From positions 1 to 64,000 of the IMG/VR virus record IMGVR_UViG_3300045988_003641: DNA of 64,000 nucleotides, one strand, 5' to 3'. The translations under genes and the position numbers were made by a program. Source of the stretch: a virus. Taxonomy: Duplodnaviria > Heunggongvirae > Uroviricota > Caudoviricetes. Shown here piece by piece: positions 24,266 to 44,208 of this stretch. The number at the start of each line of letters is the position of its first letter. Within the stretch, counting starts at the first letter, position 1. Under the pieces are notes generated by a model that made no database searches, was not told where the DNA came from, and was given only the letters and a program-made list of their open reading frames with translations.

Positions 24266-24357
24266 GAAGATTAACCCTAAAAGGTAAGGGAGCAGTTTGC
24301 TAAACTGCCAGTAGCTGAGAAATCGGTGTACCAGTTCAAGTCTGGTATCTTCCTCCA
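24266..24357 (+). tRNA. tRNA-Ser (anticodon GCU), class II
   Basis: 92 nt; acceptor GGAAGAT/ATCTTCC, stem GCAGT/ACTGC, loop TTGCTAA. Confidence 0.6.
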
Positions 24358-24361
24358 ATTT

Positions 24362-24436
24362 GAATCCGTGACAGAAATGGCTATGTGCCTGTCTGCAAAA
24401 CAGGTTTATAAGGGTTCGAGTCCCTTCGGATTCTCC
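24362..24436 (+). tRNA. tRNA-Cys (anticodon GCA)
   Basis: Acceptor GAATCCG/CGGATTC, stem CCTGT/ACAGG, loop CTGCAAA. Confidence 0.6.
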
Positions 24437-24473
24437 AAGTTATTTTACTCTCTCTCAATTAAAATAATAATAA

Positions 24474-33609: not shown

Positions 33610-34962
33610 ATGTGGAATCCAATTGTTAATGTAGATATTACATTGAACACCGCAGGAACTACAAGAGAAGGTTTTGGTTTGCCACTATTCTTAGCTTCAA
33701 CAGATAACTTTGAAGAAAGAGTGCGTGGTTATACTTCCTTAACTGAAGTTGCTGAAGATTTCGATGAGAATACTGCTGCATATAAGGCTGCTAAACAACT
33801 TTGGAGTCAGACTCCTAAAGTAACTCAGCTTTATATTGGTAGACGCGCTATGCAGTACACTGTATCAATTCCTGATGAGGTTACTGAGAGCACGGACTAC
33901 TCAATTACTGTAGCTGTCGGTGGGGGAATGTCACAACCATTCCAGTACACCTCACAAGGTGAAGATACTGCCGAGAATGTATTACAACAGTTTAAAACAC
34001 AGATTGAAGCTGACCAATCAATTAAAGATAAAGTTTCAGTCAATGTTACTGGTAGCAACGGTTCTGCCACAATGGTCATCTCCAAAGCTGGTGACAATGA
34101 TTTCGTGAAGGTAACCACTACAGCACAAACTGTGTCTATTGCAAGCACAACTGCTGATACAGCGTCAACTGCTCTGGCAGCTATTGAAGCTTATTCTACC
34201 GACTGGTATTTCATTGCAGCAGAAGACAGAACTCAACAGTTTGTTTTGGCAATGGCTTCTGAGATTCAGGCTCGTAAGAAAATCTTCTTCACAGCTAACT
34301 CTGATGTAGCAGCACTGCAAGGTACAGAATTAAATAGTGCAAATGATGTTCCAGCACAGCTTGCTAAGAGTATGTATACTCGCACAGTTTGCTTGTGGCA
34401 TCACACAGCGGCAGAAGATTATCCAGAGATGGCATATATTGCTTATGGCGCTCCATACGATGCAGGGTCAATTGCTTGGGGTAATGCTCAGTTGACTGGT
34501 GTAGCTGCTTCTTTACAGCCAGCTAATAAGAGACCTCTGACAAGCATTCAGAAGTCAGCTTTAGATGTACGTCACTGTAACTTTATCGACCTTGATGGTG
34601 GTGTTCCAGTGGTTCGTAGAGGGATTACTTCTGGTGGGGAATGGATTGATATCGTCCGTGGTGTTGACTGGTTAGAATCAGACCTGAAAACTTCTCTGAG
34701 AGACTTGCTAATTAACCAGAAGGGTGGTAAGATTACTTATGATGATACTGGTATTACCCGTATTCGTCAAGTCATTGAAACCTCTCTACAAAGAGCAGTC
34801 AACAGAAACTTCCTGTCATCTTACACAGTTAATGTTCCTAAAGCCTCTCAAGTTGCTTTGGCAGACAAGAAAGCTCGTATCCTGAAAGATGTTACCTTCG
34901 CAGGTATCTTAGCAGGGGCTATCTTGGATGTTGACTTGAAAGGTACAGTGGCTTACGAATAA
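33610..34962 (+). CDS. tail sheath protein
   Basis: 450 aa immediately before 148-aa tube-sized gene, chaperone pair and tape measure. Confidence 0.65.
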   Translation: MWNPIVNVDITLNTAGTTREGFGLPLFLASTDNFEERVRGYTSLTEVAEDFDENTAAYKAAKQLWSQTPKVTQLYIGRRAMQYTVSIPDEVTESTDYSITVAVGGGMSQPFQYTSQGEDTAENVLQQFKTQIEADQSIKDKVSVNVTGSNGSATMVISKAGDNDFVKVTTTAQTVSIASTTADTASTALAAIEAYSTDWYFIAAEDRTQQFVLAMASEIQARKKIFFTANSDVAALQGTELNSANDVPAQLAKSMYTRTVCLWHHTAAEDYPEMAYIAYGAPYDAGSIAWGNAQLTGVAASLQPANKRPLTSIQKSALDVRHCNFIDLDGGVPVVRRGITSGGEWIDIVRGVDWLESDLKTSLRDLLINQKGGKITYDDTGITRIRQVIETSLQRAVNRNFLSSYTVNVPKASQVALADKKARILKDVTFAGILAGAILDVDLKGTVAYE

Positions 34963-34977
34963 TAGAGGTAAATTGGA

Positions 34978-35424
34978 ATGGCTATGTATCAGCAATATTC
35001 CCCTAAAGACGTTGTATGTAGCTGGAATGGTATTGCCATTGAAGGCTTTGCCCCAGACTCATTTTTACGTCTACAGAGAACATCACCACTTATCACACCA
35101 GTTGTAGGTGCAGGTGGTCAGGTTGCTCTGACAAGAAATGCAGACAAGACAGGTACTATTGAGATTGAGCTAATGCAGACTTCTCTCTCTAACCAGATGC
35201 TTTCTGCAATTCAAGCTAAACAAGACAACATGGAACTTGAAGAAGATATCTCTTCTAACTTCGTAATCTACGACCCATCAGGCTCTGTTCTGGCAACTGG
35301 TATTAATGCTTGGTTGCAGGAATTACCACAGATTGAACTTGGGCGTGACCAGAACTCTAAAACTTGGATTTTTGGTTGTGAGAAGCTAGACTACACTTCT
35401 ACAATTCCAGCGTCAAGTGTTTAA
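34978..35424 (+). CDS. tail tube protein
   Basis: 148 aa after sheath, followed by strong terminator. Confidence 0.6.
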   Translation: MAMYQQYSPKDVVCSWNGIAIEGFAPDSFLRLQRTSPLITPVVGAGGQVALTRNADKTGTIEIELMQTSLSNQMLSAIQAKQDNMELEEDISSNFVIYDPSGSVLATGINAWLQELPQIELGRDQNSKTWIFGCEKLDYTSTIPASSV

Positions 35425-35436
35425 TAAATCCTATAA

Positions 35437-35468
35437 GGGGGAGACTTTAAAAGGTCTTCCCCTTTTTT
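35437..35468 (+). terminator. rho-independent terminator after sheath/tube genes
   Basis: 9-bp stem GGGGGAGAC/GTCTTCCCC followed by TTTTTT. Confidence 0.65.
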
Positions 35469-35497
35469 GTTTCTTTTAAAAGTATTAAGGAATCACA

Positions 35498-35896
35498 ATG
35501 AAAACAGAATCTAAAGTAATTAATGGTAAGAAAGTAAATATCGTTCTGCTTGGGGCAAGAGATGGGATTAAGATGTCTATGAAGCTGGGTAAAATTGTTG
35601 TTCCAACATTTGCACAGATGCTATCAAGTCTGACTGATAAAGATAAGAAAGAAGCTCCAATGGTTCCATTTAAAGACCTTGTTGAAGCTTGTTTTGACAG
35701 AATTGAAGAAATTAACCTTGAAGAAATGGCTACCCTGTTATTTCAAGGGGCAACTGTTGATGACTTCCCACTCAATATTGATACATACTTCCAAGCAAAC
35801 TACGGTGAGTTTATTGATTACTTAGCATTTGCGCTGGAGGCAAACTTCGGAAGTTTTTTCGAAGCAAGCATTTTCAAAAGCCTAACTTCTCAGTAA
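35498..35896 (+). CDS. tail assembly chaperone (gpG/E-like)
   Basis: 132 aa between tube and tape measure; slippery site near 3' end. Confidence 0.6.
   Translation: MKTESKVINGKKVNIVLLGARDGIKMSMKLGKIVVPTFAQMLSSLTDKDKKEAPMVPFKDLVEACFDRIEEINLEEMATLLFQGATVDDFPLNIDTYFQANYGEFIDYLAFALEANFGSFFEASIFKSLTSQ
35854..35860 (+). other. candidate -1 programmed ribosomal frameshift site (T TTT TTC)
   Basis: Heptamer in 0-frame of 35498-35896; -1 frame runs without stop into 35899-36138. Confidence 0.55.
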
Positions 35897-35898
35897 AC

Positions 35899-36137
35899 AT
35901 GGGTAATACTCTACAGACACCACTAACTGATGCTGCTGTAGAGGCAACCTATGAAGAAGCAGACGAGATGAAATTTGTGCTTGCTATTTATGGTATGGAA
36001 GGGTGTAAAGAAACACTTGACCAACTCTTTGCTATGACATTCTCTGATTTATTATCATTGAGACAATTTCTTGAAATTCAGAGGTCGTATAAAGAGGAAA
36101 TTGCTTACAACGAACTTAGAAGAGCAGGAAAAATGTA

Positions 36138-36138
<1 letters not shown>
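35899..36138 (+). CDS. tail assembly chaperone extension (GT/E'-like), probably made as frameshift fusion
   Basis: 79-aa ORF in -1 frame relative to upstream chaperone. Confidence 0.5.

Positions 36139-44208
<8,070 letters not shown>

Follow-up and report, generated by a model that had tools for sequence, protein, structure and literature searches.

Phages of the G/GT type reportedly make both proteins of their tail-chaperone pair at a fixed low ratio; by the account of Xu, Hendrix and Duda from 2004, the two are said to be needed for tail assembly and to be absent from virions. The slippery sequence in lambda is G_GGA_AAG. The E/E+E′ frameshift of phage P2, with the slippery sequence T_TTT_TTG, is said to have been supported experimentally by Christie and colleagues in 2002. 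The tail-chaperone frameshift is conserved among long-tailed phages, with lambda G/GT and P2 E/E+E′ as examples (Xu, Hendrix & Duda 2004, as summarised in PMC5009743), and the −1 frameshift of lambda gpG/gpGT is described in a series of papers (Levin, Hendrix & Casjens 1993; Xu, Hendrix & Duda 2004, 2013, 2014; via PMC5009743). Another −1 signal is that of Escherichia coli dnaX, which consists of A_AAA_AAG, an upstream Shine-Dalgarno (SD)-like element and a downstream hairpin. Motifs of the H_HH.U_UU.Y class, U_UU.U_UU.C included, are among the most efficient −1 motifs in E. coli (Sharma et al., PMC4066793). IS elements make use of U_UU.U_UU.C, which is under-represented among the genes of E. 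coli (PMC4066793).

The DNA studied here (the window) is the whole stretch of 64,000 nucleotides that makes up positions 1 to 64,000 of the IMG/VR virus record IMGVR_UViG_3300045988_003641. It is assigned to Felixounavirus (subfamily Ounavirinae): positions 34900-36400 match Escherichia phage VpaE1_ev035 at 100% identity and over 200 Felix O1-like phages at 95-99%. The tail assembly chaperone (TAC) gene of this Felix O1-like myovirus very probably undergoes a programmed −1 ribosomal frameshift of the lambda G/GT (P2 E/E+E′) type, as judged from comparative evidence.

A frameshift is already annotated and published for this genus and its relatives, and the interpretation is not new. The RefSeq record of Salmonella phage Mushroom (NC_041923.1; Felixounavirus) is identical in sequence at the site, and its joined CDS has the length expected for 213 aa. 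The joined CDS of Citrobacter phage Moogle (KM236239) encodes 212 aa and is found in UniProt and BFVD as A0A0A0RQ75. The genome announcements of the Citrobacter phages Moogle and Michonne (KT001916) state a −1 translational frameshift (PMC4319497, PMC4591319), and a 2025 study describes an invariant GTTTTT motif at the 3′ end of the chaperone gene in 231 Andersonviridae and also in Vandenendeviridae (PMC12846349). The annotated Felix O1-like frameshift and that of the window share the gene, the heptamer and the −1 extension, and nothing substantive differs. Published statements on it rest on bioinformatics, and the literature searched held no experimental evidence for the fusion protein in Felix O1-like phages.

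VpaE1_ev035, Felix O1 itself and most other records of the genus carry two separate ORFs or misnamed ones; the names given to the two ORFs in LR699048.1, OK040807.1 and MN227145.1 include ‘Hc1 head closure protein’, ‘head closure protein’, ‘tape-measure protein’ and ‘Tail sheath protein’. The main value of the present analysis is one of annotation, in that a single chaperone gene with a 213-aa −1 product takes the place of two small genes. Since Felix O1-like phages are used in Salmonella and E. coli typing, biocontrol and therapy, correct structural-gene models are of practical value. The additions made here are modest, namely the unusually deep conservation of one heptamer, a candidate 5′ SD-like stimulator and a two-gene replacement in a Buttiauxella prophage that serves as a natural control; the scientific gain is otherwise small. 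A side observation concerns the record GU169904.1 (‘Staphylococcus phage SA1’, 147 kb), in which a chaperone 97.7% identical to the Felixounavirus protein is encoded at 74360-74755, suggesting a mixed or misassigned record.

The chaperone locus and its reading frames

The tail module of the window contains the following genes and ORFs:

33610-34962, plus strand: tail sheath gene (DUF3383, phrog_205)
34978-35424, plus strand: tail tube gene, the upstream boundary of the G/GT-type position (PF11681, phrog_280)
35498-35896, plus strand: TAC-N, a gpG/E-like short tail assembly chaperone of 132 aa with an ATG start (PF21822, phrog_1613)
35899-36138, plus strand: 79-aa ORF with an ATG start (phrog_4963, ‘tail assembly chaperone’)
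36138-38420, plus strand: tape measure protein gene, a 760-aa ORF and the downstream boundary (PF20155 TMP_3, phrog_4036)
38420-39217, plus strand: gene for a Dit-like protein (PF21821)

Two ORFs thus lie between the tube and tape measure genes, which is the placement described for the G/GT type (Xu, Hendrix & Duda 2004) and the position that G/GT occupies in lambda, between the major tail protein and tape-measure genes. The original prediction had recognised this G/GT (E/E′) arrangement, and gene order together with the PF11681, PF21822 and PF20155 matches supports it. As in G/GT systems, the upstream ORF is a tail assembly chaperone, an assignment that draws on PF21822, the PHROG TAC families and the fold of BFVD models. 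It matches PF21822 (Phage_TAC_15) with E=1.2e-19 and 71.6 bits (gathering cut-off 22) and the phrog_1613 tail assembly chaperone family at 7.5e-49. Its AlphaFold model (pLDDT 80.5) resembles predicted phage tail assembly chaperone structures in BFVD; nothing significant was found among solved structures, and an NCBIfam search returned nothing.

P2 is a close parallel, being a myovirus with two ORFs between its tube and tape-measure genes and a T-rich heptamer; the window differs from it in protein family and in the last base of the heptamer. Compared with lambda, the slippery sequence differs, the PF21822 protein has no detectable sequence similarity to gpG, and the phage is contractile-tailed with a possible 5′ SD-like stimulator.

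The frameshift proposed here involves three further features:

35854-35860, plus strand: slippery heptamer T_TTT_TTC (U_UUU_UUC), on which two tRNA-Phe are proposed to slip in tandem by −1 (sequence, register and conservation)
35860-36138, plus strand: −1-frame extension of 92 codons plus stop, which contains the 79-aa ORF (open −1 frame, phrog_4963)
35899-35901, plus strand: ATG of the 79-aa ORF, probably not a primary initiation site (no SD, start unconserved)

The bases at 35854-35860 read TTTTTTC, and the 0-frame codons are AGT (35852-54), TTT (35855-57) and TTC (35858-60), which gives the register T_TTT_TTC, or X_XXY_YYZ. The earlier claim that this heptamer lies in the 0 frame of the 132-aa chaperone ORF is borne out by bases and codons read directly. 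Its placement 39 nt before the stop was approximate: 33 nt (11 codons) separate the end of the heptamer from the TAA at 35894-35896. The −1 frame does continue into the 79-aa ORF without a stop, as had been proposed, and is open from 35818 to the TAA at 36136-36138. It is therefore open back across the end of the upstream ORF, a G/GT trait found both here and in all relatives. The +1 frame is shut within a few codons at the site, and the downstream ORF stands in the −1 frame relative to the upstream ORF. Within the overlap there are no further heptamers; a U_UUC tetramer (ATT TTC, 35872-75) is conserved among close relatives only. The −1 extension matches phrog_4963 at 2.8e-55.

The mechanism is envisaged as follows. 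The majority of ribosomes would translate 35498-35896 and release the 132-aa TAC-N. A minority would slip when the P site is occupied by UUU (35855-57) and the A site by UUC (35858-60): the two tRNA-Phe(GAA) would move back one base onto UUU-UUU (35854-59) and re-pair perfectly in the −1 frame, after which decoding would restart at CGA (35860). The predicted product is a 213-aa fusion of about 24 kDa, TAC-NC, composed of 121 residues in the 0 frame that are common to TAC-N, followed by 92 residues in the −1 frame that end at 36138. In the long chaperone, the extension would make up a C-terminal ‘T/E′-like’ domain. If the parallel with lambda gpG/gpGT holds, the N domain common to both forms may coat the tape measure protein while the C domain recruits the tube protein, and the slippage rate would set the long-to-short chaperone ratio, as in lambda. 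What is shown directly is the sequence anatomy, its conservation and the absence of separate start signals; the ribosomal slippage and its efficiency, as well as the protein functions and the stimulatory role of GGAGG discussed below, are inferred.

Conservation of the heptamer across relatives

T_TTT_TTY occurs in the same codon register in 21 of 22 non-redundant lineages, down to 22-28% protein identity, so that the overlap contains a conserved in-register slippery sequence as in G/GT systems. The relatives of this frameshift type span Felixounavirus, Suspvirus-like phages, Mooglevirus, Kolesnikvirus, a Yersinia phage, Vequintavirinae and distant contigs. Named carriers include Felix O1, Salmonella phage Mushroom and two Vequintavirinae (22-28% identity), as well as Citrobacter phage Moogle, Yersinia phage P778 and Erwinia phage Roscha1. 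The heptamer is also kept across a set of lineages (L039-L042) with three metagenomic phages. Among IMG/VR relatives carrying the chaperone protein it is invariant (30/30), and three of these proteins are 41-47% identical to that of the window. Eight distant uncultured phages from the same resource (26-35% identity) have T_TTT_TTC in four cases and T_TTT_TTT in the other four. Both loci obtained from contigs of metagenome-assembled genomes (MAGs), binned with Erwinia and with Flavobacteriaceae, carry the heptamer.

The reading frames around the site follow the same pattern. All the frameshift-type relatives examined have a −1 frame that stays open for 61 to about 90+ codons, and a closed +1 frame. 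A −1-frame stop lies directly 5′ of the heptamer in three lineages (L039, L084 and L088); in the Yersinia phage (L035) a −1 stop lies one codon before the heptamer and the 0-frame stop comes 27 nt after it. Together, these stops confine the shift site.

Synonymous positions were compared across 12 codon-aligned lineages. At third positions the pairwise identity climbs from 0.35-0.5 along the gene to 0.75-0.88 over about 12 codons from the site. The AGT, TTT and TTC codons are each identical in all 12 sequences; elsewhere in the alignment, conserved Phe columns mix TTT with TTC and Ser columns mix codon families. When the locus was compared with Erwinia phages by blastn, the segment 35843-35883 was its sole detectable DNA, at 92.7% identity. 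Dual coding, not a signal, accounts for much of the nucleotide conservation seen 3′ of the heptamer. As judged from these alignments, protein coding by itself would by no means call for so strong a conservation of heptamer, register and open −1 frame, and this comparative evidence is decisive for the frameshift reading.

The downstream ORF and its start codon

One alternative to a frameshift is that the locus encodes two independent proteins, the 79-aa ORF being translated from the ATG at 35899, either de novo or by termination-reinitiation after the TAA at 35894-96, with the heptamer an incidental Phe-Phe pair. This explanation can draw on the position of the ATG, which is 2 nt past the TAC-N stop in this window and in most Felixounavirus genomes, and on the annotation of two separate genes in most GenBank/RefSeq records. 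It is nevertheless improbable, and independent translation from ATG 35899, which the original prediction had named as the outcome that would overturn it, is disfavoured by several lines of evidence.

First, no SD sequence precedes the ATG. The anti-SD duplex of the preceding 20 nt has a value of +0.7 kcal/mol, a pairing weaker than that of about 90% of random 20-mers from the window, against −5.1 to −10.7 kcal/mol for the 14 neighbouring genes; the 79-aa ORF is alone among 15 consecutive genes in having no SD. The downstream ORF of the window thus lacks initiation signals of its own, as G/GT downstream ORFs do, although an ATG does exist here. Second, this ATG is poorly kept. It is ATA in a 98%-identical phage (L014), and three lineages (L032, L039 and L047) have no ATG, GTG or TTG in the first 40 −1-frame codons. 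The start is displaced in Moogle and in L042, and in L031 and L040 the first start comes about 39-41 codons in and would truncate the domain. Where the start is present in other lineages, it again has no SD. Gene callers leave the space of the downstream ORF blank in L036, L039 and L040.

Third, the −1-frame residues encoded upstream of ATG 35899 (…HFQKPNFSVN…) are conserved. An alignment of the conceptual fusions gives the pattern F-F-R-x-x-x-x-Q/E-K/R-P-x-F/Y, in which Pro129 is nearly invariant and, at the DNA level, its CC dinucleotide is invariant. The 0-frame tail, beyond about 10 codons, is variable among relatives in both sequence and length. These −1-frame residues would be present in a tryptic peptide of the fusion, HFQKPNFSVNMGNTLQTPLTDAAVEATYEEADEMK, whose first ten residues come from the −1 frame upstream of ATG 35899 and need a frame change. 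Two independent proteins also fit poorly with the synonymous sites of the heptamer, which are invariant over 21 lineages. A full-library search with the 92-aa −1 extension returned eight 50%-identity clusters, all of them short ORFs, and no single-ORF fusion of the C domain.

The RNA around the start may be structured as well. In a hairpin at 35898-35953 (plus strand), CAUGGGU, which includes ATG 35899, pairs with ACCUAUG (z = −2.46 against shuffles for 35861-35960); by this folding prediction, the start annotated for the 79-aa ORF would be occluded in this window. The downstream ORF is thus probably not an independent gene, nor ATG 35899 a primary start, and reinitiation there retains some plausibility as a minor extra route in this genus.

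The remaining argument comes from the only lineage without the T-run, a Buttiauxella noackiae prophage (L038; JPRU01000001.1). In place of the slippery sequence, Ser-Phe-Phe is encoded as TCA TTC TTC. The genes in question are:

L038 3001-3986: a 126-aa TAC gene, which contains the TCA TTC TTC codons, and after it a separate 201-aa gene

The 201-aa gene has its own ATG, preceded by AAAGGTG, which is read as an SD sequence. Its product has a weak PF21822 match and consists of a TAC-N-like domain plus the C domain. Across the junction the protein is colinear with the 213-aa fusion predicted for the window (BLASTP E=4e-13); there, NFGSF--FRSKHFQKPNF aligns with NFGVFLSFVVKPFVKPDF of the prophage; this fusion-like homologue was visible by pairwise BLASTP only. 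Since the prophage lacks the slippery run and encodes a full-length fused homologue, the sole frameshift-less lineage found supplies the long form from a second gene, which also counts against two independent proteins. No sheath-sized gene was called in the 3 kb upstream of this locus, and the element may therefore be non-contractile-tailed.

Elements around the heptamer

A second alternative keeps the fusion but attributes it to transcriptional slippage, in which RNA polymerase would add one U while copying T6 (35854-35859), so that some of the mRNAs would carry the fusion in one frame. This run is short, since bacterial RNA polymerase as a rule slips efficiently on runs of about 8-9 or more. 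The run is also always placed in the X_XXY_YYZ register, and most lineages have an SD-like element, which plays no part in transcription, at a spacing that stimulates ribosomal −1 shifts. What speaks for polymerase slippage is that the conserved feature is itself a homopolymeric T run of 6-7 bases, that U7 and A7 runs have been called prone to it (PMC4066793), and that a terminator scan flags a weak hairpin plus T-run at 35834-35860. The resulting protein would be identical to the ribosomal-frameshift product, so its sequence suits either route. The fixed register, short run and SD-like element provide circumstantial evidence favouring the ribosomal over the transcriptional route, and polymerase slippage is likewise improbable.

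The last alternative, that heptamer and open −1 frame arose by coincidence, with a downstream ORF that is dispensable or not expressed as a fusion, is the least probable of all. Across the ORFs of the window in-frame X_XXY_YYZ sequences occur at 0.0038 per codon, so that about 0.1 are expected in the 26-codon overlap, the prior for a −1 relation is 1 in 3, and a long open −1 frame follows 2 of the 63 in-frame heptamers; a chance heptamer in this one genome is mildly improbable, not negligible, but the reading is effectively refuted by comparative conservation, since site, register and −1 ORF persist at 22-28% protein identity and across host groups and the C-domain sequence is conserved.

The flanking sequence contains one candidate for a stimulatory element:

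35836-35840, plus strand: GGAGG, an SD-like sequence that precedes the heptamer by 13 nt and might be a dnaX-type 5′ stimulator (anti-SD duplex)

Its anti-SD duplex of −9.3 kcal/mol ranks among the strongest 0.6% obtained with random 20-mers of the window. SD-like motifs (GGAGG, AAGGAG or GAGGT; ≤ −5 kcal/mol) are found at this spacing in 14 of 19 lineages, compared with 9.8% of control positions, and the Glu codon at the motif is GAG in 11 of 15 cases (32% elsewhere in these genes). The motif is missing in the other five lineages, those of the Erwinia and Yersinia phages included. Because of these absences, and because lineages are not independent samples, it is a plausible accessory element and not an established one. 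From its sequence and position, GGAGG may act as a 5′ stimulator of the dnaX type.

The possible likeness to dnaX lies in the heptamer being preceded by an SD-like sequence at about 10-14 nt; a dnaX-like signal would carry such an element about 6-17 nt before its heptamer. Unlike dnaX, the window has no conserved downstream hairpin, its SD-like element is not universal, and the shifted product is longer rather than shorter. RNAalifold, run on 13 diverse sequences, detected no conserved 3′ stimulatory hairpin or pseudoknot (−5.25 kcal/mol, 0 compensatory pairs), and its weak consensus fold buries the heptamer itself. Local folding of the single sequence around the site is no better than that of shuffles (z-score 0.08), and a stable hairpin or pseudoknot 5-9 nt after the heptamer, as a dnaX-like signal would have, is not present. 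The start-codon hairpin at 35898-35953 was considered as a stimulator and rejected; it begins 37 nt downstream, which is too far, and was not recovered by RNAalifold in diverse relatives.

A wider proposal can be put forward tentatively, with somewhat less than even confidence. The PF21822 signal would be a two-part, dnaX-like cassette, made up of an SD-like element 11-13 nt upstream and U_UUU_UUY, that persisted nearly unaltered in Ounavirinae, in Vequintavirinae and in uncultured phages whose hosts belong to other phyla; upon its loss, as in the Buttiauxella prophage, a duplicated full-length chaperone gene would take over. Anti-SD pairing would then tune the long-to-short ratio. The published notes on the site that were found make no mention of the SD-like element or of the two-gene replacement.

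Several minor observations were made at and around the locus. The segments CUUCGGAA and UUUCGAAG at 35845-35864 (plus strand) could pair over 8 bp into a hairpin that takes in the 3′ half of the heptamer. RNAalifold recovered this hairpin with no compensatory changes, and its support thus comes from sequence conservation only. A second candidate frameshift site, A_AAG_GGG at 39202-39208 (plus strand), is found in frame at the end of the Dit-like gene (38420-39217), four codons ahead of its stop, and its −1 frame enters an ORF at 39217-39558. This site was discarded, as it serves the following gene as ribosome-binding site (AAAAAGGGGA, 8 nt before ATG 39217); the frame relation is not conserved in an Erwinia phage.

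The window also has a cluster of 26 tRNA genes at 18871-24437 (plus strand). Among the phage tRNAs are tRNA-Phe(GAA) at 23434-23509 and tRNA-Arg(ACG) at 22185-22260, the species expected to read the slip codons and CGA, with which the −1 frame would begin. Finally, the 73-nt gap between the tube and chaperone genes contains a strong hairpin resembling an intrinsic terminator (35435-35464, plus strand), with 13 pairs, 6 of them GC, followed by TTTTGTTTCT and a T-tract that extends to about 35474. This hairpin may attenuate transcription into the chaperone and tape-measure genes.
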